A stretch of DNA of 64,000 nucleotides from Dysgonomonas sp. (GTDB lineage: Bacteria; Bacteroidota; Bacteroidia; Bacteroidales; Dysgonomonadaceae). This document shows, one piece after another, positions 767 through 26,553 of the stretch; positions within the stretch are counted from its first letter, which is position 1, and the number at the start of each line of letters is the position of its first letter. The position numbers and the translations under genes were made by a program. Below the pieces are notes generated by a model. It saw only the letters and a program-made list of their open reading frames with translations, had not been told where the DNA came from and made no database searches. The stretch covers positions 4,630-68,629 of the forward strand of contig JASGGC010000012.1 of NCBI GenBank assembly GCA_047605185.1. Direction: 5' to 3'.

Positions 767-1813
767 TTATGGTTTTGGAGGAAGGACAGCCTCTGAGATA
801 ATTTTCACTACAGGTCTTTTAGTCCCGTTAAGGATTTCATTCACTGCTTTTAATAAAAGAAGCTTGTCTTTTATTTGAGGAGCTGATTGGTCAACAAATG
901 TTTCAGCTAATCCCGCAGCAGGTACACCTTCTACAGTTTGTTCTAGGCGATCCATTTCTGCAAGAGCCTCTTTTGCAGTTTCACCTTTGCCTATTCTGAC
1001 TCCATATACTTTATTCCTTCCGGAAAGACCTGTAACCTCTAAATCCCCAACACCGGGAAGTCCAAAAGCAGTTTCTGGTTTAGCCCCCATTGCTTGTCCT
1101 AATAGTGACATCTCTTTTACAGCTTGATTGAATATGGCAGCCTTCAAATTGTGATGAGGAAATCCTGTTCCTTCCTCCAATCCATCGGCAATACCAAGGG
1201 CAATTGCATACACATTTTTCATTGGTGCACATATTTCAACCCCGGTTTCATCGTCTGTTGCTTCAATACAATAGACCTCTGTGCGTACTTCTCTTGCATA
1301 TTTGCGTGAAACTTCAAGATCTTTACACCCGAATATTGTAGCAGTCGGCTTACCTTCGGCACATTCATTTGCTTTCACAGGTCCTGCAATAGCTACTATT
1401 GGAGGTATTGCAGTATTGTTTTTTTTTGCAATTGTGCGTATCGCATCAGGGAGCAATTGTATTTTCCCATTGTCGTCAGGACAAAAGCCTTTAGATGTAA
1501 GCCATAATGCTTTAGCTTTGGAAATTCCTTTTAGTGCCATTTCTGTTACCTTCGGAACACCACCTGATGCTACTGACATTACAATAACATCCGCACCTTG
1601 CAATGCTTCTTCCAACTGGCTGGAACGGTATAGCTTCACCCCTTGAGCCAACATTACCTTTGTTCGTGGATGTGGTTTCCCTGCTTCACAGGCATCTATT
1701 AGATGGTCATCTAACCAAGTTCCCCAAAGTCTTACATCCCAACCCGATTGACGGAGTGGGGTACATAAACCGGAACCCATTGCTCCGGCACCCAAAATTG
1801 TTATAGTTCCCAT
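767..1813 (-). CDS. NAD(P)H-dependent glycerol-3-phosphate dehydrogenase family protein (divergent GpsA-like)
   Basis: 348 aa with ATG at 1813. It has the Rossmann motif ILGAGAMGSG and the family motifs KNVYAIALGIADGL and GDLEVTGLSGRN. Canonical GpsA, as I recall, has GDLxLTCxSxxSRN there, so the fold is clear but the substrate-site region has diverged. It is the last gene of a minus-strand operon with two FGGY kinases. Confidence 0.8.
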   Translation of the reverse strand: MGTITILGAGAMGSGLCTPLRQSGWDVRLWGTWLDDHLIDACEAGKPHPRTKVMLAQGVKLYRSSQLEEALQGADVIVMSVASGGVPKVTEMALKGISKAKALWLTSKGFCPDDNGKIQLLPDAIRTIAKKNNTAIPPIVAIAGPVKANECAEGKPTATIFGCKDLEVSRKYAREVRTEVYCIEATDDETGVEICAPMKNVYAIALGIADGLEEGTGFPHHNLKAAIFNQAVKEMSLLGQAMGAKPETAFGLPGVGDLEVTGLSGRNKVYGVRIGKGETAKEALAEMDRLEQTVEGVPAAGLAETFVDQSAPQIKDKLLLLKAVNEILNGTKRPVVKIISEAVLPPKP

Positions 1814-1846
1814 TTCTCAATATTTTAATTAAACTTTTATTACTAA

Positions 1847-3418
1847 TTAGAGTTCGTTCTTTGGTGATTCAGGTTTTGGTCCCGGATACATTTCGGACAA
1901 AACATGAAGCTGTTTAAATATATCTTTCAATTGAGGATATAATTGGCGTTGAATTTTTCCGACTTCATTGTACATTTCAGTTTGTTCTTTATTCGGATAA
2001 ATTGTTTCTCCTAATCGAACCATCTGTTTCGCAGCATGGGCAATATCAGTGTTTCCAAAATAGCCTGTGCTTGCCATAGCCTGAGCCGCTGCTCCGAGTG
2101 CAGATATTTCATCCTCCAGACAAATTGTAACAGGAATTCCTACAATATCGGTTATAATTTGTCTCCATAATTTTGATCTGGATCCACCTCCCATTATTCG
2201 TAACGAATTCAGTTTAACCCCTGTGTTTTGCTGTAGAAACTCTAGGTTTAATTTTACTTCAAAAGCAATTGCCTCTAAAATAGATCTGTACATGTGTGCA
2301 CGTGAATGAGTTCCCCGCCACCCGATTATTGCACCTCGTGCAAATGCATCCCAATACGGGCTTTGCACAGCATTCCAATATGGAAGAGTTACTAAGCCAT
2401 CACAACCCGGTGATAGGCGTGAAGCCTCTTCATCTAATTTCGGATCGGGTTCACCTAATAATTTCGGATCGCCAAGCGCTTGCCTGAACCATCCGGCCAG
2501 ATAGGCGCCTGAATGTTGTGTGACCTCAAATACATAATTATTTTTTATACCCGAAACATAGGTTCTGAAAACAGAGTCTGATTTGTACGTCGAGCTTTCC
2601 ACGCCTGCCACTACAGCAGTTCCTAAGTTTAGGTATGCAATATCTGGTGAAACTGCTGCAGAACCTATCCCCGCTGCCATTCCATCTCCACATCCTGATA
2701 TGATTGGAATTGCTTTAGCCAGTTTCCATTCTGCTACCAGTTCTTGTTTTAGAGTGTCTATGACATCTCCGGCTGGGACAAGATCTGCCATCTGTTCTCT
2801 TTTTACACCTGCTATTTCGAGTAACTCGTCACTATAGTCACGTTTTCTGATATCTAATAACCCTAAAGTGTCGGCACATGCTTGCGATGAAGCCCACCGT
2901 CCAGTAAGATTCCAGTTCAGGTAAGCTGCAACATCTACTATTTTATATGCTTTTTCTAAAGTTTCCGGCTCATTTTCCTTGAGCCATGCCATTTTATATA
3001 TTGCAGGTGGCTCACCCGGAGGTTTACCTGATAAGTCATGAATATGTTTAGACCCATATTGTTGAATCTGTTTCTTAGCTCTTCCGTCCAACCACAATAT
3101 TCCATTTCGGATAGGCTTTCCATCTTTATCAAATGCCGCAAAACTTTCACGTTGATGTGTAATACCTATTGCAGCAATTCGTCCTCTGTCTTTCTCTGAT
3201 AATTCGGATAGAGCGTCAGTAATACTATTATATGTGCTTTCCCACCATCTGATTGGATTATGTTCGTAAAAATCCATTGCCGGTGTATGTAATTGGATGT
3301 TGTGTTTTGCTGATGCTATCACATGCCCATCAACATCAACTATAATCGCCTTTGTTGATGTTGTCGATGAGTCGATTGCAATAACTAGTGGACTGTCCGC
3401 ATTTGTTTTATTTGTCAT
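1847..3418 (-). CDS. FGGY-family carbohydrate/polyol kinase (paralogue 2 of a tandem pair)
   Basis: 523 aa. It has the actin-fold phosphate-1 motif IAIDSSTTSTKAIIVD, GITHQRESF, and the C-terminal FGGY motifs MGGGSRSKLW and EISALGAA. It is colinear and equal in length with the upstream paralogue. Confidence 0.85.
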   Translation of the reverse strand: MTNKTNADSPLVIAIDSSTTSTKAIIVDVDGHVIASAKHNIQLHTPAMDFYEHNPIRWWESTYNSITDALSELSEKDRGRIAAIGITHQRESFAAFDKDGKPIRNGILWLDGRAKKQIQQYGSKHIHDLSGKPPGEPPAIYKMAWLKENEPETLEKAYKIVDVAAYLNWNLTGRWASSQACADTLGLLDIRKRDYSDELLEIAGVKREQMADLVPAGDVIDTLKQELVAEWKLAKAIPIISGCGDGMAAGIGSAAVSPDIAYLNLGTAVVAGVESSTYKSDSVFRTYVSGIKNNYVFEVTQHSGAYLAGWFRQALGDPKLLGEPDPKLDEEASRLSPGCDGLVTLPYWNAVQSPYWDAFARGAIIGWRGTHSRAHMYRSILEAIAFEVKLNLEFLQQNTGVKLNSLRIMGGGSRSKLWRQIITDIVGIPVTICLEDEISALGAAAQAMASTGYFGNTDIAHAAKQMVRLGETIYPNKEQTEMYNEVGKIQRQLYPQLKDIFKQLHVLSEMYPGPKPESPKNEL

Positions 3419-3445
3419 GTTTTATAGATATTATATTTATATGAG

Positions 3446-5017
3446 TTAAAGTTCAGATTTTGGAGACTCTGGTTTTGGACCCGGATATTTTTCTCCTAAA
3501 ACATGTAATTGTTCAAATACATTTTTCAACTGAGGATATAATTGATATTGAACCTTTGCTATATCTTCATATATTTTTGTTTTTTCAAGATCTGGGTTTA
3601 TTGTTTCACCGAAATGTGCCATCTGGTTAGCAGCATATGCAACATCATTATTGCCATAAACACCTGTACTTGCCATTGCCAATACAGCTGCTCCAAGAGC
3701 TGAAATTTCGTCTTGTAAACAAATTGTAATAGGAATTCCAATTATGTCAGCCATTATTTGAGTCCATAAACGTGATCGGGTTCCCCCACCCATTGCGCGT
3801 ATTGATTTGATAGGTACACCTGTTCCTTTTTGTATTGACTCAAGATTAAGTTTCATTTCGAAACCAATGGACTCTAGTATGGATCTGTACATATGTGCAC
3901 GTGAATGAGTTCCACGCCAACCGACTACCGCACCTCTCGCTACAGGATCCCAATATGGGCTTTGCACCGCATTCCAATAAGGAAGAGTTACCAAACCCTC
4001 ACAGCCCGGAGGTATTTGTGAAGCCAGTTTATCCAGTTCAGGATCGGGCTCGCCCAATAGTTTCGGATCACCTAACGATTGTCTGAACCATCCGGCAAGA
4101 TATGATCCTGATGATTGAAGAACCTCAAAAACAAAATTGCCTTTTATCCCTGACACATGGGTTCTGAACACAGGATCGCATTTATATATAGGACTCTCTA
4201 TTCCGGCATTTACGGCCGTTCCCATATTTAGGTAGGCTATTTCAGGAGACACAGCTGCTGCACCGATTCCCGCAGCTTGTCCATCACCCAATCCGGCTAT
4301 TATTGGAATCGATTGTGATAATTTCCATTCATCAACTAGTTCTTGTTTTAGCATCGCTATAACTTCCCCCGGAGGAACAAGGTCTGCCATCTGGCTACGT
4401 GTTACACCTGCAATTTCGAGCAGTTCGTCACTATAGTCAAATTTTTGAATATCTAAGACTCCCAACGAGTCAACAGCAGCAACAGATGTTGCCCATCGGT
4501 CGGTCAAATTCCAAGTAATATATCCCAATACATCTACAACCTTGTGTGCTTTTTTGAAAATTTCAGGTTCATTTTCTTTTACCCATGCCATTTTGTATAG
4601 GCCTGGTGTTACACCAGGTGGTTTTCCCGACAACTCATGTATATGAGTCGAACCATAGGCTCTGATTTGCTTTGCAGCCCGGCTGTCGAGCCATAATATT
4701 CCATTCCGTAATGGTTGGCCTTTTTCGTCAAAAGGAGCAAAACTTTCACGTTGGTGTGTTATGCCAATTGCTGCAATTCTTTTCCTTTCTTCTTCTGAAA
4801 GTTTAGAAATGGCTTCGCCAATGGCTTCATGGGTACTTTCCCACCATCTGGTCGGATTGTGTTCATAAAAATCCATTGCAGGTGTATGCAATTGGATGTT
4901 TCGTTTGCCTGTCTGTAAGACATTACCTTTAGAATCTACAACTATTGCTTTGGATGATGTTGTTGATGAGTCGATTGCAATAACTAAAGGGTCTTTGATT
5001 GTTTGAGTAGCTTTCAT
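3446..5017 (-). CDS. FGGY-family carbohydrate/polyol kinase (paralogue 1 of a tandem pair)
   Basis: 523 aa with the same motifs (IAIDSSTTSSKAIVVD, GITHQRESF, MGGGTRSRLW). By eye it is roughly 70% identical to 1847..3418 with no indels. Both end in YPGPKPESPK(N/S)EL. Confidence 0.85.
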   Translation of the reverse strand: MKATQTIKDPLVIAIDSSTTSSKAIVVDSKGNVLQTGKRNIQLHTPAMDFYEHNPTRWWESTHEAIGEAISKLSEEERKRIAAIGITHQRESFAPFDEKGQPLRNGILWLDSRAAKQIRAYGSTHIHELSGKPPGVTPGLYKMAWVKENEPEIFKKAHKVVDVLGYITWNLTDRWATSVAAVDSLGVLDIQKFDYSDELLEIAGVTRSQMADLVPPGEVIAMLKQELVDEWKLSQSIPIIAGLGDGQAAGIGAAAVSPEIAYLNMGTAVNAGIESPIYKCDPVFRTHVSGIKGNFVFEVLQSSGSYLAGWFRQSLGDPKLLGEPDPELDKLASQIPPGCEGLVTLPYWNAVQSPYWDPVARGAVVGWRGTHSRAHMYRSILESIGFEMKLNLESIQKGTGVPIKSIRAMGGGTRSRLWTQIMADIIGIPITICLQDEISALGAAVLAMASTGVYGNNDVAYAANQMAHFGETINPDLEKTKIYEDIAKVQYQLYPQLKNVFEQLHVLGEKYPGPKPESPKSEL

Positions 5018-5441: not shown

Positions 5442-6101
5442 ATGATAAAACTAGTTATTTTCGATTTAGACGGTACTTTGCTAAATACATTAGATGATTT
5501 AGCAGATTCTTGTAATTATATATTGAATAAGTATGGATTTCCCGAACATCCGGTAGAAGCATATCGCTATTTTGTCGGAAACGGGGTTGCCAAACTGGTA
5601 GAACGCGCCTTGCCTGAAGATGTAAGGACTCCCGAATTTATAGAGAAAGTAAGAAAAGATTTTGTTGAATATTACAGTGCCCATGCAGAGGACAAAACAT
5701 GCCCTTATGATGGGATTTTGAAACTGTTGGAGGATATTTCCGCTAAAGATATAAATTTGGCGGTGGCTTCTAATAAATTTATAGCAGGTACAAAAGCTTT
5801 GGTAAAGAAATACTTTGATCATATAGAATTTACTTCAGTTTTAGGGCAGCGCGAAGGAGTTCCTGTAAAACCAAATCCTCAGATTGTATATGATGTAATG
5901 GCCGAATCTGGAATTACCGACAAAAAACATATATTATATATAGGTGACTCCGGAGCAGATATGAAGACTGCTATGAATGCAGGAGTCGAAAGTGTCGGTG
6001 TGCTATGGGGGTTTAGAGATAGAGCCGAATTGAAAGAGAATGGTGCATCTTATTTTGTTGAATCACCAACCGAAATTTTAGATATTATAAGTAAGCTTTG
6101 A
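5442..6101 (+). CDS. HAD-IA family hydrolase (phosphoglycolate/sugar-phosphate phosphatase-like)
   Basis: 219 aa. It has HAD motif I VIFDLDGTLLNT, motif II ASNK, and motif IV YIGDSGADM. Confidence 0.8.
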   Translation: MIKLVIFDLDGTLLNTLDDLADSCNYILNKYGFPEHPVEAYRYFVGNGVAKLVERALPEDVRTPEFIEKVRKDFVEYYSAHAEDKTCPYDGILKLLEDISAKDINLAVASNKFIAGTKALVKKYFDHIEFTSVLGQREGVPVKPNPQIVYDVMAESGITDKKHILYIGDSGADMKTAMNAGVESVGVLWGFRDRAELKENGASYFVESPTEILDIISKL

Positions 6102-6239: not shown

Positions 6240-7895
6240 ATGGAAAAAGATTGTTCTAAAACTAGCAAAACAAAACCATATGATGTCATTGTTATAGGAG
6301 GTGGTGCTACAGGAGCGGGGGTTGCTCGTGACTGTTCGCGTCGTGGGCTTTCTGTGCTTCTCATCGAAAGATACGATTTGGCTACAGGGGCTACAGGTCG
6401 TAATCATGGTTTGTTACATAGTGGTGCTCGGTATGCAGTGACCGACAAAGAGTCTGCAGAAGAGTGTATTCAAGAAAACATGATTCTGAGAAGAATTGCA
6501 AGTCATTGCGTAGAGGATACTCAAGGCTTGTTTTTAAGCTTACCTGAAGATGATTTGTCTTATCAGGATAAATTCGTACAGTCATGTCAGATTGCCGGTA
6601 TCAATGCCCAGATCATAGATCCGAAGGAAGCCTTGTTGTTGGAGCCTTCTGCAAATCCTTCTCTTATAGGGGCTGTTAAAGTACCTGATGGCTCCGTAGA
6701 TCCTTTCCGATTGACCTTGTCTAATGTTTTGGATGCAAAAGCTCATGGGGCCGATGTGTTGACCTACCACGAAGTAGTTGGTTTTGTGAAAGAGCAGAAT
6801 AGAATAATCGGGGTTAAAGTAATCGATCATAAATCGAAACAAACGAAAGAAATATATGGAAATATAACCGTAAATGCCGGAGGTATTTGGGGACAGCATA
6901 TTTCAGAATTTGCCGATGTCAAAATTAAAATGTTCCCGGCTAAAGGTTCGTTGTTAATCTTCGGACACAGAATAAATAAGTATGTGTTAAATCGCTGTCG
7001 TAAACCGGCCGATGCAGATATTTTAGTTCCCGGCGACACTATTTGTCTTATCGGTACAACATCTATTCATGTTGAATATGACCAGATAGATAACATGTTT
7101 GTTACACCCGAGGAAGTAGATGTATTGATTAGAGAAGGCGAAAAACTTTCTCCAATTCTATCTCAGACTCGTATACTTCGTGCATATGCCGGAGTCCGTC
7201 CTTTAGTTGCTGCAGATAACGATCCTACCGGACGAAATATTAGCCGTGGCATTGTCTTACTCGACCATGCAGAACGCGATGGGTTAGAAGGCTATGTTAC
7301 TATAACAGGTGGAAAATTAATGACATACCGATTGATGGCAGAACTCACTACAGATTTGGTTTGTAAGAAACTGAATGTTACTGCCGAATGTACAACTGCA
7401 AAAGAGAATTTGCCCGGTTCGCGTGAATCCTCCGAAGAGGTTAATCGTAAAATGACTTCTGTACCTGTGTCCATACGTGAATCAATGATTTATCGTCATG
7501 GAGATATGGTTAGCGAAATGCCAGAAAGTGATACTTTCTCCAGAAGCCTTGTTTGCGAATGTGAAGAAGTCTCGGTGGGTGAAGTTGAATACGCGAAAGA
7601 TAAATTGAATGTTAATAATCTGGTCGATTTACGTCGGCGCACACGTGTTGGAATGGGGACATGTCAAGGTGCTCTGTGTGCTTGTCGTGCAGCTGGCTTG
7701 ATGAGCCAACTTAGAGGGACTTATAGTTCAGACCGGTCGAAAGAAGATCTGGCCATGTTTCTTGATGAACGCTGGCGTGGAGTATACCCTATATCGTGGG
7801 GGGATAGTCTTCGCGAAAGTGAATATGCTTCGTGGGTATATGAGAATGTATGTGGATTAAGTTTACCTGAAAATAAGAAAGAATATGAAGTTTGA
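6240..7895 (+). CDS. glpA: Anaerobic glycerol-3-phosphate dehydrogenase subunit A
   Basis: 551 aa. It has the FAD dinucleotide motif VIVIGGGATGAG and a C-terminal BFD-like Cys cluster (CECEEVS...GTCQGALCAC). It is followed by glpB and glpC. Confidence 0.9.
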   Translation: MEKDCSKTSKTKPYDVIVIGGGATGAGVARDCSRRGLSVLLIERYDLATGATGRNHGLLHSGARYAVTDKESAEECIQENMILRRIASHCVEDTQGLFLSLPEDDLSYQDKFVQSCQIAGINAQIIDPKEALLLEPSANPSLIGAVKVPDGSVDPFRLTLSNVLDAKAHGADVLTYHEVVGFVKEQNRIIGVKVIDHKSKQTKEIYGNITVNAGGIWGQHISEFADVKIKMFPAKGSLLIFGHRINKYVLNRCRKPADADILVPGDTICLIGTTSIHVEYDQIDNMFVTPEEVDVLIREGEKLSPILSQTRILRAYAGVRPLVAADNDPTGRNISRGIVLLDHAERDGLEGYVTITGGKLMTYRLMAELTTDLVCKKLNVTAECTTAKENLPGSRESSEEVNRKMTSVPVSIRESMIYRHGDMVSEMPESDTFSRSLVCECEEVSVGEVEYAKDKLNVNNLVDLRRRTRVGMGTCQGALCACRAAGLMSQLRGTYSSDRSKEDLAMFLDERWRGVYPISWGDSLRESEYASWVYENVCGLSLPENKKEYEV

Positions 7896-9135: not shown

Positions 9136-9142
9136 GAAAGCT

Positions 9143-19885: not shown

Positions 19886-19947
19886 AATCATAAATCTAAA
19901 CCTATATACCATATATTAAACATTTTCAAACCTTAAAGCGTATTATC

Positions 19948-21615
19948 ATGGAATTTTCTAATAATTTAGTAATCGGGCTCGATTATGGTACAGATTCGGC
20001 AAGAGCTATACTGATCGATGCAGAAACGGGCAAAGAATTAGCTTTATCAATAAAAGAATATCCTAGATGGAAACAAGGGTTATATTGTGATCCTGTAAAA
20101 TCTCAATTCAGACAACATCCATTGGACTATTTGGAAGCAATGGAGTATGTTATAAACGATGTTTTAAATACAGTTGCAGGGGCAAAAGAAAAAGTGAGAG
20201 CAATAAGTGTCGATATGACTGGGTCTACCCCTATTGCTGTCGATGCAGAAGGAACTCCTTTGGCTATGAAGCTCGAATTTTCAGAATATCCGAATGCAAT
20301 GTTCGTATTGTGGAAAGACCATACAGGGCAGAAAGAGTGCGATTATATTAATGAGTTTTCAAAAAAATGGAAAATTGATTATACACGCTCTAAATGGTGT
20401 GGAAACTATTCGACAGAGCACTTTTGGACAAAAGCTCTTCATATATTTAAAGACCCTAAAATAAAAGCAGCTGCTCATTCTTTTGTAGAATCGAGTGATT
20501 GGCTTCCCGGAGAATTGACAGGCAATACAAAACCTGAAAAACTCAAAAGGGGAATGGGTATAGCTTCCTCACGTGTGATGTGGAACAAAGAATGGGGAGG
20601 TTATCCGCCTAACGAATATTTTAAAGCTCTCGATCCGGCTTTGGATGGTCTAGTCAATACTTTCGATCCTCAGGCTTATACCTGCGATCAGTCCGTGGGG
20701 ACTCTCACTTGTGAGTGGGCAGAGCGTTTAGGGCTTAGTGATAAAGTTCTTGTTGCTGTCGGTAATTTAGACTGTCATGCAGGTGCTATTGGTGCCGGGG
20801 TAAAAGATCGTGCTATGGTCGAAATTATAGGAACATCTACATGTGCCATAACAGTAGCTCCGAAAGCGCTTGATGGAGGAAAAGTTCCGGGTGTTCCACA
20901 ACAGGCAGACGATATGATATTGCCGGGTATGATTGGTTATGAAGGTGGACAGTCTTGCTTCGGAGACTTATACGCATGGTTCAAAAAAATGTTGATGTGG
21001 CCGTTAAACAATATTTTGGCCAATACAACAGTTGTAGATGAGGATATAAAAAAGAAACTGATAGATGAGGTTTATGCCGAAATGATACCGACTTTAGCTC
21101 GTCAGGCGAAAATTGTACCGGCCGAAGATAGTTCTGTTATTTCTACAGACTGGGTGAATGGGCGACGTTCACCAAATGTTGACTACGACCTGAAAGGAAC
21201 TATTGCAGGGCTGACACTATCCAGTACAGCTCCTCTGGTTTACAAATCGTTAGTCGAAGCTACTGCCTTCGGGGCAAAAGCCTTTATCGAACAGTTCCAA
21301 AATAATGGAGGGCATCTCGAAGAGGTTATTGCAGTTGGAGGTATATCCCAAAAATCGCCATACGTAATGCAAGTACTTGCTGATGTAATTGGTATGCCGA
21401 TCAATGTAATTGCTACCCGCGAGGCTTGTGCATTAGGTGTTGCCATGTGTGCAGCAGTTGTGGCTGGAGTATATCCGAGTTTGGAAGAAGCTCAACAAAG
21501 TATGAAAATGAAAATATCGACTGTGTATAAACCAAGTGATAGAAATCATGATCATTATTGTAAAGAATACAGAAAATATTTGAATCTGGAAGAAGTCAAG
21601 AAATTTATTGAATAA
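19948..21615 (+). CDS. araB: Ribulokinase-family FGGY kinase (AraB-like, paralogue 2)
   Basis: 555 aa. It is colinear with 18221..19885 and about 70% identical by eye, with the same AraB motifs. Confidence 0.8.
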   Translation: MEFSNNLVIGLDYGTDSARAILIDAETGKELALSIKEYPRWKQGLYCDPVKSQFRQHPLDYLEAMEYVINDVLNTVAGAKEKVRAISVDMTGSTPIAVDAEGTPLAMKLEFSEYPNAMFVLWKDHTGQKECDYINEFSKKWKIDYTRSKWCGNYSTEHFWTKALHIFKDPKIKAAAHSFVESSDWLPGELTGNTKPEKLKRGMGIASSRVMWNKEWGGYPPNEYFKALDPALDGLVNTFDPQAYTCDQSVGTLTCEWAERLGLSDKVLVAVGNLDCHAGAIGAGVKDRAMVEIIGTSTCAITVAPKALDGGKVPGVPQQADDMILPGMIGYEGGQSCFGDLYAWFKKMLMWPLNNILANTTVVDEDIKKKLIDEVYAEMIPTLARQAKIVPAEDSSVISTDWVNGRRSPNVDYDLKGTIAGLTLSSTAPLVYKSLVEATAFGAKAFIEQFQNNGGHLEEVIAVGGISQKSPYVMQVLADVIGMPINVIATREACALGVAMCAAVVAGVYPSLEEAQQSMKMKISTVYKPSDRNHDHYCKEYRKYLNLEEVKKFIE

Positions 21616-21622
21616 TAGATTT

Positions 21623-21655: not shown

Positions 21656-21708
21656 ATTTCCTATACGTGTGAATTAGTAGGTATTAGGTAATTATAAAAT
21701 AATAGATA

Positions 21709-23739
21709 ATGGAAAAAGATAGAGTTATTGAGCATGCGGCTGATAATATTAGAATTTTATCCGCTGCAATGGTTGAAAAAGCAAAATCGGGACATCCTGG
21801 TGGAGCTATGGGTGGAGCTGATTTTATGAATGTTTTATATTCAGAATTTTTGGTTTATGACCCACAAAATCCTCAATGGGAACAGAGAGACCGTTTCTTT
21901 TTGGATGCAGGTCACATGTCGCCGATGTTATATTCTACGCTGGCTCTTGCCGGAAAATATACGGTAGAAGATTTGATGCAATTCCGCCAATGGGAAAGTG
22001 TTACTCCCGGGCATCCCGAATTAGATTTAAAGCATGGAATTGAAAATACCTCAGGTCCATTAGGACAAGGGCACGCTTATGGAGTAGGAGCAGCGATTGC
22101 AGCCAAATTCTTAAAATCCCGTATGGGTGATATAATGAGTCAGACGATTTATGCATATATTACCGACGGTGGTATACAGGAAGAAGTTTCGCAAGGAGCA
22201 GGGCGTATTGCCGGGCACTTAGGACTAGATAACCTGATAATGTTTTACGACTCTAATGGCATTCAACTTTCTACCGAAGTTAAAGAAGTGAATGAAGAAG
22301 ATGTTGTAGCCAAATATAAAGCTTGGGGTTGGGAAGTATTCGAAATAGACGGAAATAATACGAAACAAATTCGTGAAGCATTGACCAAAGCTAAAGCTGT
22401 GCAGGGAAAACCTACATTAATTATTGGAAATACGATAATGGGCAAAGGTGCAGTCGATGCTAACGGCGGCTCTTTCGAGAATAAGACTTCTACTCATGGA
22501 CAGCCGTTAAGTGCAGCCGGAGCCAGCTTCGAAAAAACTGTTGAAAACTTAGGAGGAGACCCACAGAAACCGTTTACTATCTTTGCCGAGGTGCAGGAGT
22601 TATACTCGAAACGTGCAGAGGAGTTGAAACATATAGTTGCAGAAAGAGAAAAAGAAAAAGCAGCTTGGGCAAAACAAAATCCGGACAAAGCAACCAAATT
22701 GAAAAAATGGTTTGCTAATGAAACTCCTGATATAGCTTGGGATAAAATACAGCAAAAAGCAAATGATGCCACTCGTAATGCTTCTGCCACAGTATTAGGG
22801 GCTCTGGCACAACAAGTGGAGAATATGATCGTGTCTTCTGCCGATTTATCTAATTCGGACAAAACGGATGGATTCTTAAAACATACACATAGTTTCAAGA
22901 AAGGAGACTTTTCAGGAGCATTCCTTCAAGCAGGTGTTGCTGAATTTACAATGGCATGTCTTTGTGTTGGTATGAGCCTTCATGGAGGGATCATTCCGGC
23001 TTGTGCAACATTCTTTGTCTTTTCTGACTATATGAAACCTGTTATCCGTGTCGCAGCATTGATGGAAAAACAAGTTGTATTTGTTTGGACACATGATGCA
23101 TTTAGAGTAGGTGAAGATGGGCCTACACACGAACCAGTGGAGCAGGAAGCACAAATCCGATTGATGGAGAAATTAAAAAACCATCATGGCAAAAATTCAA
23201 TGTTGGTATTACGTCCGGCAGATGTTCAGGAAACGACAGTTGCTTGGAAACTAGCTATCGAAAACAAAAACTCTCCGACTGGTTTAATTCTTTCCCGTCA
23301 GAACATAACAGACTTGCCATCGGCAGGCAATAGATATCAAGATGCTTTGCAAGCAGGCAAAGGCGCATATGTGGTGCAAGAAGAGAAAGATTATGATGTG
23401 ATTCTGGTAGCAACAGGCTCTGAAGTTTCAACATTGATTGAAGGTGCTGAATTGTTGAAGAAGGATAATATAAAGGCTCGCATCGTATCTGTACCGTCCG
23501 AAGGCTTATTCCGTTCTCAGCCGAAAGAATATCAAGAATCTGTTTTACCTAAAGGCAAAAAGAAATTTGGTCTTACAGCAGGTCTTCCTGTTAATCTGTT
23601 AGGATTAGTTGGTGACATTGATGCTATATGGGGCTTGGAATCGTTCGGATATTCTGCTCCATACAAGATTCTTGATGAGAAGTTGGGCTTTACTGCCGAC
23701 AATGTATGCAAACAAGTTAAAAAATATCTGGGGAAATGA
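21709..23739 (+). CDS. tkt: Transketolase
   Basis: 676 aa with motifs GHPGGAMG, the ThDP-binding region YITDGGIQEEVSQGA...FYDSNGIQ, and VWTHDAFRVGEDGPTHEPVEQ. Confidence 0.95.
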   Translation: MEKDRVIEHAADNIRILSAAMVEKAKSGHPGGAMGGADFMNVLYSEFLVYDPQNPQWEQRDRFFLDAGHMSPMLYSTLALAGKYTVEDLMQFRQWESVTPGHPELDLKHGIENTSGPLGQGHAYGVGAAIAAKFLKSRMGDIMSQTIYAYITDGGIQEEVSQGAGRIAGHLGLDNLIMFYDSNGIQLSTEVKEVNEEDVVAKYKAWGWEVFEIDGNNTKQIREALTKAKAVQGKPTLIIGNTIMGKGAVDANGGSFENKTSTHGQPLSAAGASFEKTVENLGGDPQKPFTIFAEVQELYSKRAEELKHIVAEREKEKAAWAKQNPDKATKLKKWFANETPDIAWDKIQQKANDATRNASATVLGALAQQVENMIVSSADLSNSDKTDGFLKHTHSFKKGDFSGAFLQAGVAEFTMACLCVGMSLHGGIIPACATFFVFSDYMKPVIRVAALMEKQVVFVWTHDAFRVGEDGPTHEPVEQEAQIRLMEKLKNHHGKNSMLVLRPADVQETTVAWKLAIENKNSPTGLILSRQNITDLPSAGNRYQDALQAGKGAYVVQEEKDYDVILVATGSEVSTLIEGAELLKKDNIKARIVSVPSEGLFRSQPKEYQESVLPKGKKKFGLTAGLPVNLLGLVGDIDAIWGLESFGYSAPYKILDEKLGFTADNVCKQVKKYLGK

Positions 23740-24203
23740 ATAAGCCAGATAAAGATTTAGTTTGTTTGTCAGGCAAGCCAGTAGGTCTTTGTTGTGATCA
23801 TGCCGGGTTCGAATTGAAACAATTTGTGATTAAATTGTTGTCGGACAATGGTATTGTATATGAGGATTTTGGTACATATACGGACGAGAGTTGCGACTAC
23901 GCTGATTATGCACATAAGCTGGCCAATGCTGTGGAGTCGGGTAAATGTTATCCCGGCATTGCAATTTGTGGTTCGGGTAATGGGATTAATATGACCCTCA
24001 ACAAGCATCAACTTATCCGTTCTGCATTGTGTTGGACAGCAGAATTGTCTCGCTTGTCCCGTGCTCATAATAATGCTAATATTCTCACCTTGCCGGCTCG
24101 GTTTATAACAGAGGAAGAGGCATATAAGGCTATAAAAACTTTTTTCGAAACTCCATTTGAAGGTGGAAGACATCAAAAAAGAATTGAAAAGATTCCAGTG
24201 TGA
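23736..24203 (+). CDS. rpiB: Ribose-5-phosphate isomerase B
   Basis: 155 aa with motifs CCDHAGFELK, ICGSGNGINMTLNK, HNNANILTLPARF and GGRHQKRI. Its ATG overlaps the tkt stop (ATGA). Confidence 0.85.
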   Translation: MNKPDKDLVCLSGKPVGLCCDHAGFELKQFVIKLLSDNGIVYEDFGTYTDESCDYADYAHKLANAVESGKCYPGIAICGSGNGINMTLNKHQLIRSALCWTAELSRLSRAHNNANILTLPARFITEEEAYKAIKTFFETPFEGGRHQKRIEKIPV

Positions 24204-24230
24204 TTTTAGAAATAGATAAAGTTTGATTAA

Positions 24231-24270
24231 AAGCAGGTTCCTTTGATGGGGCTTGCTTTTTGTTTTGAAT
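24231..24270 (+). terminator. Rho-independent terminator after rpiB
   Basis: agcaggttcc pairs with ggggcttgct (10 bp including G-U pairs, loop tttgat), followed by TTTTTGTTTT. Confidence 0.65.
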
Positions 24271-24360: not shown

Positions 24361-24822
24361 TTACTTTTTTAGGATTTCTTGCTCATATTCAGCTATTCGG
24401 TTTACCTTAGGTGTAGATCCTCCTCCGGCAAATTCGCTTTCTAACCAGATGTCCAATAGATTTTTAGCTAGTTCCAATCCAATAACACGCTCTCCGAAGC
24501 AAACGATTTGTGCATTGTTGCTTTTTCTTGCTCTTTGTGCCGAAAATGAATCGTGACATACCGCAGCTCGCACACCCGGAACTTTGTTTGCACACATACA
24601 TACGCCAAGTCCTGTTCCACACACAAGGACAGCCCGTTCAAACTCCTTGTTTGCCACAGCTTCGGCAACTTTGAATGCTACATCCGGATATAAAATTACT
24701 TCTCCCGATTCTGCACCGTAATCTGCAACTTCATAACCTTTTTCTTCCAAATGTTTCTTTAAAACTACTTTCATGTTGTAGGCTGCTTCATCACAACCTA
24801 TTGCAATTTTTTTCTTTTCCAT
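24361..24822 (-). CDS. RpiB/LacA/LacB-family sugar-phosphate isomerase (divergent second paralogue)
   Basis: 153 aa with motifs IAIGCDEAAY, LVCGTGLGVCMCANK and SNNAQIVCFGERV. Where rpiB has GGRHQKRI, this protein has GGGSTPKVNRI. Confidence 0.75.
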   Translation of the reverse strand: MEKKKIAIGCDEAAYNMKVVLKKHLEEKGYEVADYGAESGEVILYPDVAFKVAEAVANKEFERAVLVCGTGLGVCMCANKVPGVRAAVCHDSFSAQRARKSNNAQIVCFGERVIGLELAKNLLDIWLESEFAGGGSTPKVNRIAEYEQEILKK

Positions 24823-24996: not shown

Positions 24997-25101
24997 GTTT
25001 GCATTTGTTTCCTATTTCGCTTTGTAAAACTTTCTATTGAAAGTCTGGATTATCTCATAGTTTTATTATTATATTTGTATTTTATAGACAAAACATAAAA
25101 T

Positions 25102-25710
25102 ATGAATACAATAGAAGAGGCGTTAGAGGATATCCGCAAAGGGAAGTTGATAATCGTAGTAGATGATGAAAATAGGGAGAATGAAGGTGACTTTGTTGTG
25201 GCTGCCGAAAGAATAACTCCCGATACAGTTAACTTTATGTTACACCAAGGGCGAGGTATACTTTGTGTATCATTACCGGGCGAACGATGTGAAGAACTTC
25301 AATTGCCGATGATGGGAGAAGATAATACTTCACTGTTGGGTACTCCTTTTACCGTATCTGTCGATTTGATTCCGGGTTGTGCTACAGGAGTTTCCTCTAA
25401 AGAGCGTGCTGCTACAATCTATTCACTAGTAGATCCGGCAACTAAACCTTCAGACTTAGCCCGTCCGGGTCATATATTCCCATTACGAGCTTGCTCCGGA
25501 GGTGTCTTTGACAGAGAGGGACATACCGAAGCTGTAGTCGATTTGACAAGACTTGCCGGACTCAAACCGGGTGGGGCATTAATTGAAATTATGACAGAAG
25601 ATGGGGCTATGGCGCGTTTGCCTCAGTTGCAGGAAATTGCAAATAAATTCGATCTGAAGATTGTTTCAATCGCAGATTTGATAAAATACAGAAAGGCTAA
25701 TAATTTATAA
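25102..25710 (+). CDS. ribB: 3,4-dihydroxy-2-butanone-4-phosphate synthase (stand-alone, no GTP cyclohydrolase II domain)
   Basis: 202 aa. Full-length similarity to E. coli RibB includes [21 protein letters not shown] and EGHTEA. Confidence 0.9.
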
Positions 25711-25785
25711 GGATATATTCTTACATTCTTTTACAAGACTATTGATCCGATTTAGTTTTTTTGAATATTAATGAATTAAAGTATT

Positions 25786-26553
25786 ATGGGAAATATTGCA
25801 CAGCGACATAAGTATATTTTAGAGCAACTCAAAAAGGAAGATTACGTAAAAGTACAAGAACTGAGTAAAATCCTAAATGTATCAGAAGTTACAATCCGAA
25901 AGGATCTGAAATATTTGGAAGAAAAGAAAATGCTTTCCAGAAATCACGGGTCTGCAAGTAATGTTCTTACAATTATGCCCGATAGGCATATCGATGTAAA
26001 AGAAAAGATACAAGTTGATGAAAAATGTAGGATTGCTGCTGCTGCCAGAGATTTGATTGAAGTTAATGATCGGATTATAGTAGCATCCGGAACTACGACT
26101 TTGGCTTTTGCGAATGCTATAAATGAGTTGAATGTTCCTGTCTCGGTAATAACTCCTTCGGTAAAAGTTTCGTTAGCTTTGTGTTATAATCCAAATATTG
26201 AGATAATCCAATTGGGAGGAGTTATCAGAAAAAATGCAGCATCGGTAATAGGCAATGAGGCTGAAAGCATGTTGAAAGGAATATCTTGTAACAAACTATT
26301 TTTTGGAATTGATGGACTGGAATTAGACTATGGTTTGACAACTAGCAGTCTGAGTGAAGCTCATATTCATCAGCAAATGATTAACTGCTCACAGAAAATT
26401 ATTGTGCTGGTCGATTCTTCTAAATTTGGAAAACGTGGATTCTGTAAAATATGTAGTATAAATAAAGTGCATCAGATCATTACAGATTCGAATGCACCTA
26501 CTCATACTGTAAATGCTTTGAGAGAAAGTGGTATCGAAGTAACAATTGTTTAA
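25786..26553 (+). CDS. DeoR/GlpR-family transcriptional regulator
   Basis: 255 aa. It has an N-terminal wHTH (VKVQELSKILNVSEVTIRKDLKYLEE) and a C-terminal DeoR sugar-phosphate sensor domain. Confidence 0.9.
   Translation: MGNIAQRHKYILEQLKKEDYVKVQELSKILNVSEVTIRKDLKYLEEKKMLSRNHGSASNVLTIMPDRHIDVKEKIQVDEKCRIAAAARDLIEVNDRIIVASGTTTLAFANAINELNVPVSVITPSVKVSLALCYNPNIEIIQLGGVIRKNAASVIGNEAESMLKGISCNKLFFGIDGLELDYGLTTSSLSEAHIHQQMINCSQKIIVLVDSSKFGKRGFCKICSINKVHQIITDSNAPTHTVNALRESGIEVTIV

Follow-up and report, generated by a model that had tools for sequence, protein, structure and literature searches.

Gene content of the region

The 64-kb window (the whole stretch of DNA that was analyzed) carries, over some 26 kb, five FGGY-family kinases and three kinds of dehydrogenase in company with glycerol and pentose-phosphate genes (Table 1). 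The first-pass annotation had listed these genes, and every one of them is present where it was placed; what escaped it is a 282-residue secreted protein encoded between glpK and the MIP channel. This protein finds no match in Pfam or NCBIfam searches, has a homologue just 5' of the MIP gene in loci L090 (59% identity) and L091, and is probably an outer-membrane barrel or channel.

Table 1. Features of the region: positions in the window, strand and supporting matches
Feature	Position	Strand	Match or characteristic
GpsA-like NAD(P)-dependent dehydrogenase (module C)	767..1813	-	NAD_Gly3P_dh N and C domains; 181 bits, below every NCBIfam GpsA cut-off
FGGY kinase 1a, diverged duplicate (module C)	1847..3418	-	72% identity to 1b; best model XylB, 305 bits (cut-off 380)
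FGGY kinase 1b, orthologue of the single-copy kinase of other genomes (module C)	3446..5017	-	Best model XylB, 286 bits (cut-off 380)
HAD-IA phosphatase, upstream of glpA	5442..6101	+	Phosphoglycolate phosphatase-like, 141 bits (cut-off 225)
glpA, glpB, glpC (anaerobic glycerol-3-phosphate dehydrogenase)	6240..10360	+	NCBIfam equivalogs, 946, 518 and 644 bits, far above cut-offs
glpK, bona fide glycerol kinase	10806..12296	+	822 bits (cut-off 498)
282-aa secreted protein	12411..13259	+	Signal peptide; C-terminal ...VLQF (final Phe)
MIP channel, first gene of core module	13583..14359	+	PF00230
tal, short-type transaldolase	14442..15092	+	TIGR00875, 284 bits
AraM/G1PDH-like dehydrogenase	15110..16495	+	Fe-ADH_2; 161 bits (cut-off 413)
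HAD-IIA phosphatase (AraL-like), constant partner of AraM-like	16626..17486	+	TIGR01460, 130 bits (cut-off 100)
AraD-type L-ribulose-5-phosphate 4-epimerase	17488..18189	+	NF006047, 342 bits (cut-off 257)
AraBa, AraB-like kinase, clade a	18221..19885	+	Ribulokinase model NF003154, 664 bits (cut-off 428)
AraBb, AraB-like kinase, clade b	19948..21615	+	Ribulokinase model NF003154, 603 bits (cut-off 428)
tkt, general pentose-phosphate gene	21709..23739	+	71% identity to Parabacteroides ara-operon tkt
rpiB1, general pentose-phosphate gene	23736..24203	+	68% identity to Parabacteroides ara-operon rpiB
rpiB2, module-linked RpiB paralogue	24361..24822	-	TIGR01120, 150 bits (cut-off 139)
ribB, stand-alone DHBP synthase	25102..25710	+	TIGR00506, 231 bits
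DeoR-family (GlpR-like) regulator	25786..26553	+	HTH_DeoR and DeoRC domains

The glycerol genes are ordinary: GlpK is 57% identical to its E. coli namesake and keeps every glycerol-binding residue. The HAD-IA gene is missing from a related Tannerellaceae locus, in which a DeoR gene lies directly 5' of glpA, and its membership of the locus is uncertain; ribB has no FMN riboswitch or other Rfam match upstream, and related loci other than near-identical contigs have no ribB. Both genes had been taken for members of the locus, and no evidence of linkage was found for either. The tkt-rpiB1 pair, 3' of AraBb, closely resembles the tkt-rpiB pair that lies 3' of AraB in the canonical ara operon of Parabacteroides. 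Strong terminators follow rpiB1 (24229-24260) and the DeoR gene (26575-26609); no hairpin of that kind lies within 10806-24203, from glpK to rpiB1, and co-transcription of tkt and rpiB1 with the core module is proposed.

Tblastn searches of the 64-kb window with E. coli and Bacteroidales AraA and XylA found nothing, nor did searches with an SSF symporter, mutarotase, RbtT/DalT and OPA transporters of the MFS, and GldA; the other large ORFs (at least ~120 residues), when scanned against Pfam, proved to include no SDR/MDR dehydrogenase or sugar permease. The absence from the window of araA, xylA, an SDR/MDR polyol dehydrogenase and a sugar permease, claimed at first pass, is thus upheld. It also continues past the border: the 10 kb to the left, read on a near-identical contig, contain no araA, xylA or sugar permease.

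The conserved core and its relatives

The order MIP-tal-AraM-like-HAD-IIA-AraD-AraBa-AraBb, together with rpiB2, is a conserved core found in at least 11 loci; it recurs in Apibacter spp., in Tannerellaceae and in other MAGs. Among nine related loci, AraB-like kinases and the HAD-IIA phosphatase occur in all, the MIP channel and AraD in eight and tal in seven, and XylA and SSF homologues in none. The MIP channel is 57-73% identical to the MIPs heading the same module in eight of these nine, against just 39% for a MIP linked to glpK; relative to GlpF it keeps both NPA-type motifs, R206 and G191, with W48 changed to Gly and F200 to Trp. A reading of the tal gene as fructose-6-phosphate aldolase was rejected: where FSA has Q59 and Y131 this protein has Glu and Phe, the transaldolase pattern.

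Relatives of the AraM-like gene populate 73 loci designated type I; nine loci are of type II. In type I the gene is embedded among glycerol-phosphate genes, adjoins a GlpT/UhpC-type organophosphate antiporter in 56 of the 73, and has a kinase nearby in just one; most of the relatives lie near organophosphate antiporters and glycerophosphodiesterases. The HAD-IIA gene is its neighbor in 58 of the 73 type I and all nine type II loci. The AraM-like protein belongs to a kinase/AraD-linked subclade that differs from the OPA-linked subclade, as fixed differences, by one substitution (T108V) and one 13-residue insertion (279-291) only. In two sister loci (Sphingobacterium phlebotomi and one MAG) the MIP channel is replaced: AraM-like-(HAD)-AraBb-RpiB2 is followed by a transporter of the RbtT/DalT family (565-567 bits; cut-off 375). 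The Sphingobacterium version is a compact four-gene unit of AraM-like, AraBb, RpiB2 and transporter, free of glycerol genes, in which the AraM-like protein is 74% and the kinase 76% identical to those described here. RpiB2 shares only 29% identity with RpiB1, against 85% and 76% with the RpiB adjoining an AraBb-type kinase in L100 and L007, respectively.

AraBa and AraBb are 67% identical to each other and form sister clades that lie outside canonical and E. coli AraB (for AraBa, 54% identity to canonical Bacteroidales AraB and 43% to the E. coli enzyme). Each clade has fixed changes in the sugar-binding loop, at or beside the ribulose-binding Lys208: AraBa keeps K208, with the adjacent His changed to Phe and one canonical Trp to His, and in AraBb this lysine is Arg in 37 of 37 clade members. 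As first proposed, then, these are not plain orthologues of the araA-linked ribulokinase. AraD is 53-54% identical to araA-linked AraD and keeps D76, H95, H97, D120, H171 and Y229 of the E. coli enzyme.

The core module is also present in Apibacter adventoris wkB301 (locus L008). This strain acidifies glycerol, D-adonitol (ribitol), D-arabitol and L-arabitol but gives a negative result on L-arabinose, ribose, xylose, xylitol and erythritol (PMC7442301); its pentitol phenotype could stem from genes elsewhere in its genome. Apibacter is microaerobic (PMC5913662), so that the framing of such loci as a matter of anaerobic Bacteroidota does not hold generally. The analogy that had been drawn with the erythritol routes of Brucella and Mycobacterium smegmatis fails as well: there is no EryA-type kinase, FAD-dependent EryB-type paralogue or EryC/TpiA2/LerI, RpiB2 scores below the DerI cut-off (158 against 240 bits), and A. 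adventoris does not use erythritol.

AraBa, AraBb and AraD do pass the NCBI ribulokinase and epimerase models, which would suit an ordinary L-arabinose pathway with araA and a transporter elsewhere in the genome, where araA could lie. That reading is hardly credible. An araA gene is missing from the nine type II loci, L100 and three near-identical contigs as well as from the window; in the two canonical Bacteroidales ara operons compared (Paludibacter and Parabacteroides), AraD-AraA-AraB are contiguous and accompanied by an SSF symporter and an NrtR-type regulator; the kinases form a separate clade; and A. adventoris is L-arabinose-negative (PMC7442301).

A proposed route for pentitols

The cluster combines ordinary glycerol genes with an arabinose-like operon devoid of the isomerase, and most likely serves growth on five-carbon sugar alcohols. 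That the region is more than a glp regulon stands. The idea of a single 26-kb super-locus does not: the region is probably a catabolic island of mosaic make-up that handles glycerol and pentitols, and no single linear pathway is meant. Its parts are the ordinary glpABC/glpK set, the conserved core, the tkt-rpiB1 pair of canonical Parabacteroides type, and module C, discussed below.

Within this scheme glpK and glpABC would provide the standard glycerol route. In the core, an "araA-less ara operon", the MIP channel would admit pentitols, of which ribitol and L-arabitol are the likeliest; the G1PDH-family dehydrogenase, together with the kinases derived from AraB, would turn them into pentulose 5-phosphates. 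AraD would convert L-ribulose-5-phosphate to D-xylulose-5-phosphate, RpiB2 would take the ketose phosphate of the AraBb branch (probably D-ribulose-5-phosphate), and tal, tkt and rpiB1 would pass the carbon to glycolysis. A path from polyols to the pentose-phosphate pathway is well supported by the RbtT/DalT sister loci, pentitol use by A. adventoris, conservation of the core and the separate kinase clade. If it is correct, pentitols sustain growth by way of enzyme families never before assigned to that task; our literature search found no published description of such a cluster.

The order of the steps is less straightforward. Phosphorylation first, with oxidation of the pentitol phosphate second, is plausible and is favored here, at near parity within this model; the AraM-like enzyme is accordingly proposed to be a pentitol(-phosphate) 2-dehydrogenase. 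E. coli AraB accepts ribitol and L-arabitol for phosphorylation, and ribulokinase acting on pentitols is a known toxic side reaction; the kinase-first order would make a pathway of it, with the HAD-IIA phosphatase as a putative relief valve. The case for a phosphorylated dehydrogenase substrate is circumstantial: it comprises the antiporter-neighboring relatives, the small differences between subclades, and the motifs kept by the GpsA-like and FGGY1 proteins of module C.

The same genes accommodate the reverse order equally well, since classical pentitol routes, such as the Klebsiella rbt and dal operons, oxidize first and the relatives of AraB are ketopentose kinases. The AraM-like enzyme would then oxidize free ribitol or arabitol to L- and D-ribulose, AraBa and AraBb would be L- and D-ribulokinase, and AraD and RpiB2 would finish. 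AraBa keeps every ribulose-binding residue, and AraBa and AraBb alike score above the ribulokinase cut-off; some members of the Fe-ADH superfamily are dehydrogenases of free polyols, and glycerol dehydrogenases appear among the matches (compare GldA, which acts on glycerol). In twelve type I loci the AraM-like gene is accompanied by an RbtT/DalT transporter but by no kinase, from which oxidation of free polyols could follow. Against this, the SRPASGxEHxxSH motif of the AraM-like protein is common to G1PDH and AraM and absent from E. coli GldA, most relatives keep the organophosphate company noted above, and the universally linked phosphatase is left with no clear role. On balance oxidation before phosphorylation appears rather unlikely.

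A further reading takes the AraM-like and HAD-IIA proteins to serve glycerol-1-phosphate and to be merely co-located with a ketopentose-scavenging system, in which free L- and D-ribulose would enter through the MIP channel for use by AraBa, AraBb and AraD. The B. subtilis araABDLMNPQ operon also has AraL and AraM, and its AraM is a proven G1PDH; the setting of the AraM-like gene in type I loci speaks for the same role. D-Ribulose, moreover, is a real gut nutrient and is phosphorylated by E. coli AraB (PMC12307932). Nevertheless this is improbable: the Sphingobacterium four-gene unit has no glycerol genes, and A. adventoris uses pentitols (PMC7442301). A scavenging system of this sort would also have to admit ketopentoses through an aquaglyceroporin, and we know of no documented case of such passage.

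In the favored pentitol pathway, a weak point is that a single AraM-like enzyme must serve both kinases.

Module C and the regulator

The two FGGY1 kinases and the GpsA-like dehydrogenase of module C stand apart. Apibacter, Actinomycetaceae and Propionibacteriales have proteins with 67-88% identity to the GpsA-like protein, which lies directly downstream of a 523-residue FGGY kinase in the three loci examined, all three alike; the two-gene FGGY and GpsA-like module as a whole is 67-88% identical to Actinomycetota proteins. FGGY1b is 70-75% identical to the GpsA-like-linked kinases of Mobiluncus, Propionimicrobium and Apibacter; FGGY1a is 25-28% identical to E. coli GlpK and XylB. The GpsA-like protein retains the KNV, GDL..T and SGRN motifs and the phosphate-binding Arg/Asn.

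These features might suggest that the region is an extended glycerol regulon and nothing else, its additional kinases and dehydrogenases leading from glycerol or its phosphates to DHAP by alternative routes that are NAD(P)-linked or specific for one enantiomer: FGGY1 with the GpsA-like protein would be a glycerol kinase and NAD(P)-G3PDH pair in the style of A. fulgidus, and G1P would fall to the AraM-like enzyme. The best PDB matches are indeed A. fulgidus G3PDH (1txg) for the GpsA-like protein and archaeal glycerol kinases for FGGY1, in which the glycerol kinase residues that bind the diol (R83, E84, W103 and D245) are retained; in Propionimicrobium the pair adjoins glpCBA and glpK, and the regulator is GlpR-like. 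However, the three pocket-closing residues of glycerol kinase are lost (in FGGY1a, Y135 is Pro, Q246 is Gly and F270 is deleted), and such routes would be redundant next to the genuine glpK/glpABC that this locus also carries. Glycerol as the sole object also leaves the conserved AraD, transaldolase, RpiB2 and two AraB-derived kinases unexplained, along with the RbtT/DalT-linked sister loci, and is very improbable. As part of the pentitol and glycerol mosaic, module C may instead be a horizontally mobile pair of kinase and polyol-phosphate dehydrogenase whose putative substrate is a polyol held via its glycerol-like end. The spacing of the phosphate site in the GpsA-like protein suits the carbon beside CH2OP, which predicts ketose-1-phosphates; no aldolase for these is evident, and that counts against the mosaic interpretation.

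The DeoR protein is 69% identical, and orthologous, to the regulator that precedes glpABC-MIP-AraM-like in L090, and 45-52% identical to AraM-like-linked DeoRs of both locus types; those of glycerol-phosphate-type and kinase-type loci are themselves 45-52% identical to each other. Its identity to the actinobacterial GpsA-like-linked DeoR is 24%. Orthology to a regulator 5' of glpABC and likeness across locus types suggest that its effector may be a glycerol phosphate, a point against the pentitol scheme. A SusC/SusD pair begins 86 bp past the DeoR gene, on the opposite strand.

Gene content and what the window lacks

The genes named in the first-pass annotation were all recovered by ORF listing and HMM scans; the features with assigned coordinates are collected in the table. 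To these must be added AraD, a short transaldolase (tal), tkt, two RpiB proteins that are 29% identical (rpiB1, the copy paired with tkt, and rpiB2), a DeoR regulator, and phosphatases of the HAD-IA and HAD-IIA classes. The two kinases of FGGY pair 1 (FGGY1a and FGGY1b) share 72% identity with each other and 25-28% with E. coli GlpK and XylB; those of pair 2 (AraBa and AraBb) are 67% identical. Two features had been missed: the secreted protein between glpK and the MIP channel gene, and a SusC/SusD pair just past DeoR.

Principal features of the window
Feature	Coordinates	Strand	Assignment
GpsA-like dehydrogenase	767-1813	-	Under all equivalog cut-offs; top score 181 vs 257 bits
FGGY pair 1	1847-3418, 3446-5017	-	Best model XylB, sub-threshold (305/286 bits vs 380 cut-off)
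glpABC	6240-10360	+	NCBIfam equivalogs, scores far over cut-offs (GlpA 946 bits)
glpK	10806-12296	+	NCBIfam equivalog, score far over cut-off
282-aa secreted protein	12411-13259	+	Signal peptide, C-terminal Phe, no family match
MIP channel	13583-14359	+	Sole MIP at the locus
AraM/G1PDH-like dehydrogenase	15110-16495	+	Fe-ADH_2; under equivalog cut-off
FGGY pair 2	18221-19885, 19948-21615	+	Both pass NCBI ribulokinase model NF003154
Hairpin past rpiB1	24229-24260	+
Stand-alone ribB (DHBP synthase)	25102-25710	+	GTP cyclohydrolase II domain missing
Hairpin past DeoR	26575-26609	+
SusC/SusD pair and 421-aa protein	26639-32658	-
tRNA gene	39706-39780	-
Separate PUL	44863-59897

The claim that araA, xylA and a sugar permease are absent stands: tblastn with AraA, XylA, an SSF symporter, mutarotase and RbtT/DalT yields 0 matches in the 64-kb window, queries with an OPA antiporter and GldA likewise find nothing there, and Pfam scans of the window's remaining large ORFs (at least ~120 aa) detect no SDR or MDR dehydrogenase or sugar permease domain. 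Leftward of the window, the adjoining 10 kb, read from a near-identical contig, contain envelope genes only.

That the core module (MIP-tal-AraM-like-HAD-IIA-AraD-AraBa-AraBb plus rpiB2) feeds polyols into pentose phosphates is well supported by comparative genomics and by the phenotype of one relative, and this role, with either order of its first two steps, is very probable. The original interpretation is partly supported; its erythritol analogy and its notion of a single super-locus are not.

Mosaic architecture and two kinds of related locus

The single 26-kb unit that had been proposed is not supported; the region is a mosaic. With the AraM-like protein (a G1PDH-family dehydrogenase, relatives of which are encoded in at least 592 species) as anchor, 80 loci were taken from species-representative genomes, together with contexts on metagenome contigs, and the neighbourhoods fall into two architectures. 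In type I (73 loci, with AraM-like proteins at 52-58% identity, in Bacteroidota, some Verrucomicrobiota/Opitutaceae and a few other MAGs) the order is AraM-like, OPA-family antiporter (GlpT/UhpC-like), HAD-IIA, the antiporter being present in 56 of the 73 and HAD-IIA in 58. Also found nearby are a DeoR regulator (25 loci), a glycerophosphodiesterase (22), a GlpD-like FAD dehydrogenase (16) and SusC (16). An RbtT/DalT-family transporter is found in 12 type I loci that have no kinase; a kinase occurs in just one of all 73. Type II consists of the window and nine further loci (Apibacter spp., Tannerellaceae, other MAGs) with AraM-like proteins at least 63% identical, arranged [DeoR] MIP-tal-AraM-like-HAD-IIA-AraD-AraBa-(AraBb). 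Among the nine, AraB-like kinases are universal (9/9), MIP and AraD are each present in eight, and tal in seven; glpABC, tkt and a second dehydrogenase-kinase pair are variable attachments.

The type I module (L013-L086; e.g., L034, 7394-13477, in Bacteroides caecimuris, and L035 in Gaoshiqia) is widespread and unannotated, mainly in Bacteroidota. Its gene content of DeoR, GlpD-like, glycerophosphodiesterase, AraM-like, GlpT/UhpC-type antiporter and HAD-IIA, often beside SusC/D, looks like a system for breaking down phosphate esters of glycerol or alditols, its substrates being, at a guess, fragments of teichoic acid or of phosphatidylglycerol head groups. Some Apibacter and related loci (L010, 10001-19570, in Apibacter muscae; L008, L011, L092) carry extra dehydrogenase and kinase pairs in the operon. 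One pair combines a second AraM-like paralogue (56% identity) with an additional FGGY kinase, and another a different GpsA-like protein (31% identical to the window's) and an FGGY kinase of 560-584 aa, whose branch lies outside the AraB group. Dehydrogenase-kinase pairs act as modules.

On the forward strand from glpK onward, only two strong hairpins (at least 13 pairs) occur, one past rpiB1 and one past DeoR. This terminator pattern is consistent with one long transcript, missing terminators being weak evidence.

An arabinose-like operon without arabinose isomerase

Ordinary arabinose operons are the source of the proteins with 53-56% identity to AraBa. In the two canonical examples, from Paludibacter (AraD-AraA-AraB-mutarotase-SSF-AraR) and Parabacteroides (AraR-AraD-AraA-AraB-tkt-rpiB-SSF), AraA lies between AraD and AraB. 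The window looks like such an operon from which araA and the symporter have been removed, to which a second kinase has been added, and in front of which MIP-tal-AraM-like-HAD-IIA has been placed. The AraD-type epimerase, the AraB-family kinases and, as in Parabacteroides, a directly downstream tkt-rpiB are common to both. The window's tkt and rpiB1 match the Parabacteroides pair at 71% and 68% identity, and are thus general pentose-phosphate genes and not inventions specific to this pathway. AraA, sugar symporter, mutarotase and an NrtR-type regulator are lacking in the window, whereas MIP, AraM-like and HAD-IIA are gained, the regulator is of DeoR type, and the two kinases belong to a distinct clade. 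Three AraA proteins find no tblastn match in the window, in the type II loci or in the left flank; the window encodes no SSF or MFS sugar permease, and its regulator is not AraR or AraC. Lacking AraA and a transporter, and with paralogous kinases, the locus does not qualify as a canonical araBAD pathway of L-arabinose use. AraD retains its Zn ligands and catalytic residues (D76, H95, H97, D120, H171, Y229; NF006047, 342 vs 257 bits), so that L-ribulose-5-P is still to be expected as an intermediate.

The AraB-like pair are not plain ribulokinase orthologues, despite passing NF003154. AraBa and AraBb are 52-54% identical to canonical AraB. Their orthologues form sister clades of a neighbour-joining tree, outside the group of canonical Bacteroidales and E. 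coli AraB, and sequences from Apibacter and from the window's lineage are found in both clades. The duplication is old or, alternatively, the operon was transferred as a unit. Changes in the sugar-binding loop are fixed within each clade. The L-ribulose contacts of Bacillus halodurans AraB (3QDK) were traced across the alignment, with residue roles as reported in its structure paper; the residue letters of the 3QDK chain agree with them. W126, D274 and E329 are invariant across canonical, AraBa and AraBb sequences; K208 is Lys in all 13 canonical and all 28 AraBa sequences and Arg in all 37 of AraBb. The His just before it is replaced by Phe in AraBa and by Ser in AraBb, and one canonical Trp has become His in both clades.

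A separate PUL elsewhere in the window encodes a GH127 beta-L-arabinofuranosidase, a glutaminase-A-like six-hairpin protein, GH2, DUF3823, SusD/SusC with an STN domain, a FecR anti-sigma factor and an ECF sigma factor. It could free arabinose-containing glycans, yet no araA is encoded in the window.

Pentitols as the predicted substrates

Two sister loci, in Sphingobacterium phlebotomi (L100) and in a MAG (L007), encode orthologues of AraM-like (74% identity), the AraBb-type kinase (76%) and RpiB2 (85% and 76%), followed by a transporter of the RbtT/DalT/CsbX family (565-567 bits vs a cut-off of 375). This family includes the Klebsiella ribitol and D-arabitol permeases. It follows that MIP replaces a pentitol permease in the window and that rpiB2 goes with the AraBb branch.

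Type II locus L008 comes from Apibacter adventoris wkB301T, which acidifies glycerol, D-adonitol (ribitol), D-arabitol and L-arabitol; tests with L-arabinose, D-ribose, D-xylose, xylitol, erythritol, mannitol and sorbitol are negative (PMC7442301). The Apibacter genome paper identified no pentitol pathway (PMC5913662). The pentitol-negative strain wkB309 has no protein in the cluster membership lists, which is not proof that it lacks the module. Since a cultured and phenotyped organism carries the module, the question is directly testable.

The 216-aa protein has Glu and Phe where FSA has Gln59 and Tyr131 and keeps the Schiff-base Lys85; it is thus a transaldolase, and these residues dispose of a DHA/FSA route on the E. 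coli gldA-fsaB model (Fe-ADH polyol dehydrogenase plus F6P aldolase). A transaldolase conserved in the operon fits a pentose-phosphate product. The MIP protein reaches none of the specific NCBIfam cut-offs and, compared with E. coli GlpF, has W48 changed to G and F200 to W. Its selectivity filter reads Gly (W48), Gly (G191), Trp (F200), Arg (R206), the alignment at W48 being uncertain; if that alignment holds, the shifted aromatic might alter the pore for larger polyols. The 282-aa secreted protein is conserved directly upstream of MIP in a Tannerellaceae MAG (L090) and in L091, which has two copies; small polyols may cross the outer membrane through it.

The best explanation of the whole, a mosaic glycerol and pentitol island in which phosphorylation is favoured as the first step, is in our judgement rather probable.

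The order of the first two steps

Within the pentitol model, phosphorylation before oxidation and the reverse are about equally probable. In the classical pentitol operons oxidation precedes phosphorylation, the ribulose site of AraBa is complete, and the 12 kinase-less type I loci couple AraM-like to an RbtT/DalT transporter; these three points count against a kinase-first order. The kinase-first mechanism is plausible on other grounds: the constant partnership with a HAD-IIA phosphatase, a shared SRPASGxEH motif, and the small difference between type I and type II AraM-like proteins. The DG, GYADL and SRPASGxEHxxSH motifs of AraM-like align with Methanocaldococcus jannaschii G1PDH and with AraM, and SRPASGxEH, common to all of these, is missing in E. 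coli GldA, although the motif is only a correlate of phosphate binding. Against the EgsA/AraM equivalog model NF002022 the protein scores 161 vs 413 bits, with the match limited to residues 20-269. All that separates the type I from the type II proteins is a single fixed substitution (T108V) and a 13-residue insertion (279-291) beside the HQFSHLWDMEHH motif. Standing beside organophosphate antiporters and phosphodiesterases and without a kinase, the type I enzyme must have imported phosphate esters as its substrates.

A classical toxic side reaction of E. coli AraB is the phosphorylation of ribitol and L-arabitol. At C2, L-arabitol-5-P and D-ribitol-5-P would be configured like sn-G1P, and the D-arabitol phosphates like G3P; these opposite configurations would account for the presence of both dehydrogenase families at the locus. 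A bolder reading, which we regard as tentative and on balance doubtful, concerns the AraM-like proteins of Bacteroidota, which in more than 590 species bear the annotation sn-glycerol-1-phosphate dehydrogenase; it would make them catabolic alditol-phosphate dehydrogenases, and the pathway at this locus a non-PTS, kinase-first pentitol pathway. AraB-derived kinases would phosphorylate the pentitols, and the pentitol phosphates would then be divided between G1PDH-type and G3PDH-type dehydrogenases of opposite C2 stereospecificity. Were this so, AraL and AraM of the B. subtilis ara operon, a long-standing puzzle, would be explained as clearing or using polyol phosphates made by ribulokinase.

The FGGY1 and GpsA-like pair

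The GpsA-like protein (for comparisons of which P0121, 99% identical, served as stand-in) is 67-88% identical to proteins of Apibacter, Propionibacteriales and Actinomycetaceae (Mobiluncus, Gleimia, Arcanobacterium, Trueperella, Schaalia, Actinomyces). In all three loci examined (Mobiluncus, Apibacter mensalis, Propionimicrobium) its gene follows that of a single 523-aa FGGY kinase, and in both actinobacterial loci DeoR comes next; no dedicated transporter or isomerase gene adjoins the pair in any of the three. In Propionimicrobium the pair lies beside glpCBA and glpK. FGGY1b is the orthologue of the single-copy kinase (70-75% identity), and FGGY1a is a more diverged local duplicate. The pair (window 767-5017; L087, L088, L089) is 65-88% identical between Bacteroidota and Actinomycetota, implying recent inter-phylum transfer, and looks like a horizontally mobile two-enzyme unit. 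The score against the equivalog (181 vs 257 bits) and the pairing with FGGY in 3/3 loci and with DeoR in 2/3 speak against a plain biosynthetic GpsA.

An NAD(P)-linked route for glycerol itself is possible, and the best PDB matches, Archaeoglobus fulgidus G3PDH for GpsA-like and archaeal glycerol kinases for FGGY1, lie in that direction. The FGGY1 kinases keep the glycerol kinase residues R83, E84, W103 and D245 and lose the pocket-closing Y135, Q246 and F270. In GpsA-like, KNVYAI (catalytic Lys), GDLEVT and SGRNKVYG (Arg-Asn phosphate site) align with E. coli GpsA. This pattern of residues fits a kinase that would grip the glycerol-like end of a larger polyol, followed by a polyol-phosphate dehydrogenase. 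In propionibacteria, catabolism of erythritol and ribitol is known biochemically or phenotypically universal and has no assigned genes (PMC4437456, PMC10733421). The mobile pair is thus a candidate, and may encode one of these gene-less polyol routes of propionibacteria or Actinomycetaceae, although the stereochemistry to be expected is no obvious fit for the P. pentosaceum intermediates.

Relation to known polyol systems

The tetritol pathways of Brucella and M. smegmatis share a general logic with the window: FGGY kinase, G3P-dehydrogenase homologue, RpiB-family isomerase, DeoR-type regulator. The closer analogy with them that the first-pass annotation drew breaks down in its components. EryA belongs to a RhaB-related FGGY branch (PMC3245297); rhamnulokinase models give FGGY1a and FGGY1b some of their lowest scores (64-96 bits; 23% identity to E. 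coli RhaB), and GlpK and XylB are nearest, so that an EryA-type kinase is not supported on the published placement of EryA. EryB is FAD-dependent and GlpD-like, whereas GpsA-like is of NAD(P) type; the sole FAD enzyme among the window's dehydrogenases is the genuine GlpA. No TIM-barrel isomerase or TPI paralogue (EryC, TpiA2) is found among the window ORFs scanned, and LerI, LerK and EltD have no counterpart in the window. The DerI/EryI model NF051858 has a cut-off of 240 bits, and rpiB2 scores 158 and rpiB1 58 (rpiB2 passes the generic TIGR01120). By stereochemical analogy, the first two intermediates made by GK-like FGGY1 and GpsA-like would be those of EryA and EryB; such a pair would yield the Brucella-type enantiomers and not the L-erythrulose-1-P of P. 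pentosaceum, which leaves the erythritol link as a weak lead only.

In architecture, the nearest parallel is the ara operon of B. subtilis (araABDLMNPQ-abfA), in which AraL, a HAD-IIA phosphatase, is encoded together with AraM; it is, to our knowledge, the only other site at which AraB, AraD, a HAD-IIA phosphatase and a G1PDH-family enzyme share an operon. B. subtilis AraM is reportedly (Guldan's work of 2008, cited in PMC5059525) a Ni-dependent G1P dehydrogenase; it supplies G1P for ether lipid, and the window's AraM-like protein is ~65 residues longer. The best PDB match of the latter, 9h4x, is a G1PDH chain of 414 residues and probably represents AraM of B. subtilis. Unlike the window, the B. 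subtilis operon encodes AraA and an ABC transporter for arabinose oligosaccharides.

The Klebsiella/E. coli C operons for ribitol (RbtD-RbtK-RbtT) and D-arabitol (DalD-DalK-DalT) resemble the window in predicted substrates, in pentulose 5-phosphate end products and in use of an FGGY kinase. Their dehydrogenase is of SDR/MDR type, in contrast with the window's G1PDH-family metal enzyme, AraB-derived kinases and MIP uptake, and the order of steps in the window may be the reverse. With no SDR/MDR dehydrogenase (among ORFs of at least ~120 aa) and no RbtT/DalT transporter in the window, the locus does not qualify as an operon of this type. Gram-positive bacteria have PTS pentitol routes, with ribitol/xylitol-5-P dehydrogenases in Lactobacillus casei and D-arabitol-phosphate dehydrogenase in Enterococcus avium. 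The chemistry, pentitol phosphate to pentulose 5-phosphate, is alike if the kinase acts first; phosphorylation there is by the PTS and oxidation by MDR enzymes, whereas the window would use ATP-dependent FGGY kinases after channel uptake, and the G1PDH and GpsA families. With the E. coli glp regulon the window has in common bona fide glpK and glpABC, a MIP channel and a DeoR-family regulator. It differs by ~14 kb of interleaved extra kinases, dehydrogenases, epimerase, isomerase and pentose-phosphate genes, and by a MIP of a module-specific subgroup, 39% identical to a glpK-linked MIP.

Polyol catabolism as such is known. The recruited G1PDH-family dehydrogenase, the AraB-derived kinase pair and the GpsA-like dehydrogenase are new, and the order of steps possibly so; literature searches turned up neither an account of this module nor a catabolic role ascribed to the AraM-like enzymes of Bacteroidota. 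Genes for pentitol use in Bacteroidota have so far been unassigned, and in P. freudenreichii the erythritol and adonitol routes could not be reconstructed from known pathways (PMC4437456). If the model holds, the "G1P dehydrogenase" of hundreds of Bacteroidota/Verrucomicrobiota genomes is a catabolic polyol(-phosphate) dehydrogenase and not an archaeal-lipid enzyme, and a "ribulokinase" annotation without araA marks sugar-alcohol utilisation. Both points bear on metabolic models of gut bacteria and insect symbionts, and on the predicted consumers of dietary or host-derived polyols.

Regulator, ribB and flanking genes

The window's DeoR shares 69% identity with the regulator that precedes glpABC-unk-MIP-AraM-like in a Tannerellaceae MAG, 45-52% with AraM-like-linked DeoRs of both architectures, and 24% with the actinobacterial DeoR linked to GpsA-like; its effector is probably a polyol or glycerol phosphate. 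In a search for a shared operator, neither 8-mer enrichment over the nine intergenic regions nor the candidate AAATAGTCTTT gave more than AT-rich matches dispersed throughout the window, and no regulon motif can be claimed. The position of HAD-IA is not conserved in a related locus.

The stand-alone ribB is divergent from rpiB2 and beside DeoR, and its substrate is ribulose-5-P, which the locus is predicted to produce. Apart from near-identical contigs, none of the related loci examined carries the gene. Control by riboflavin is rejected: there is no FMN riboswitch upstream, nor any other Rfam match at the locus.

Directly past DeoR lies the SusC/SusD pair, and then a 421-aa protein with an OsmC-like domain over its C-terminal 100 residues. 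Type I AraM-like loci likewise often border SusC/D pairs. Farther on come the tRNA gene, a DUF5020 protein and a xanthine/uracil-family permease (to 42098), all unrelated.
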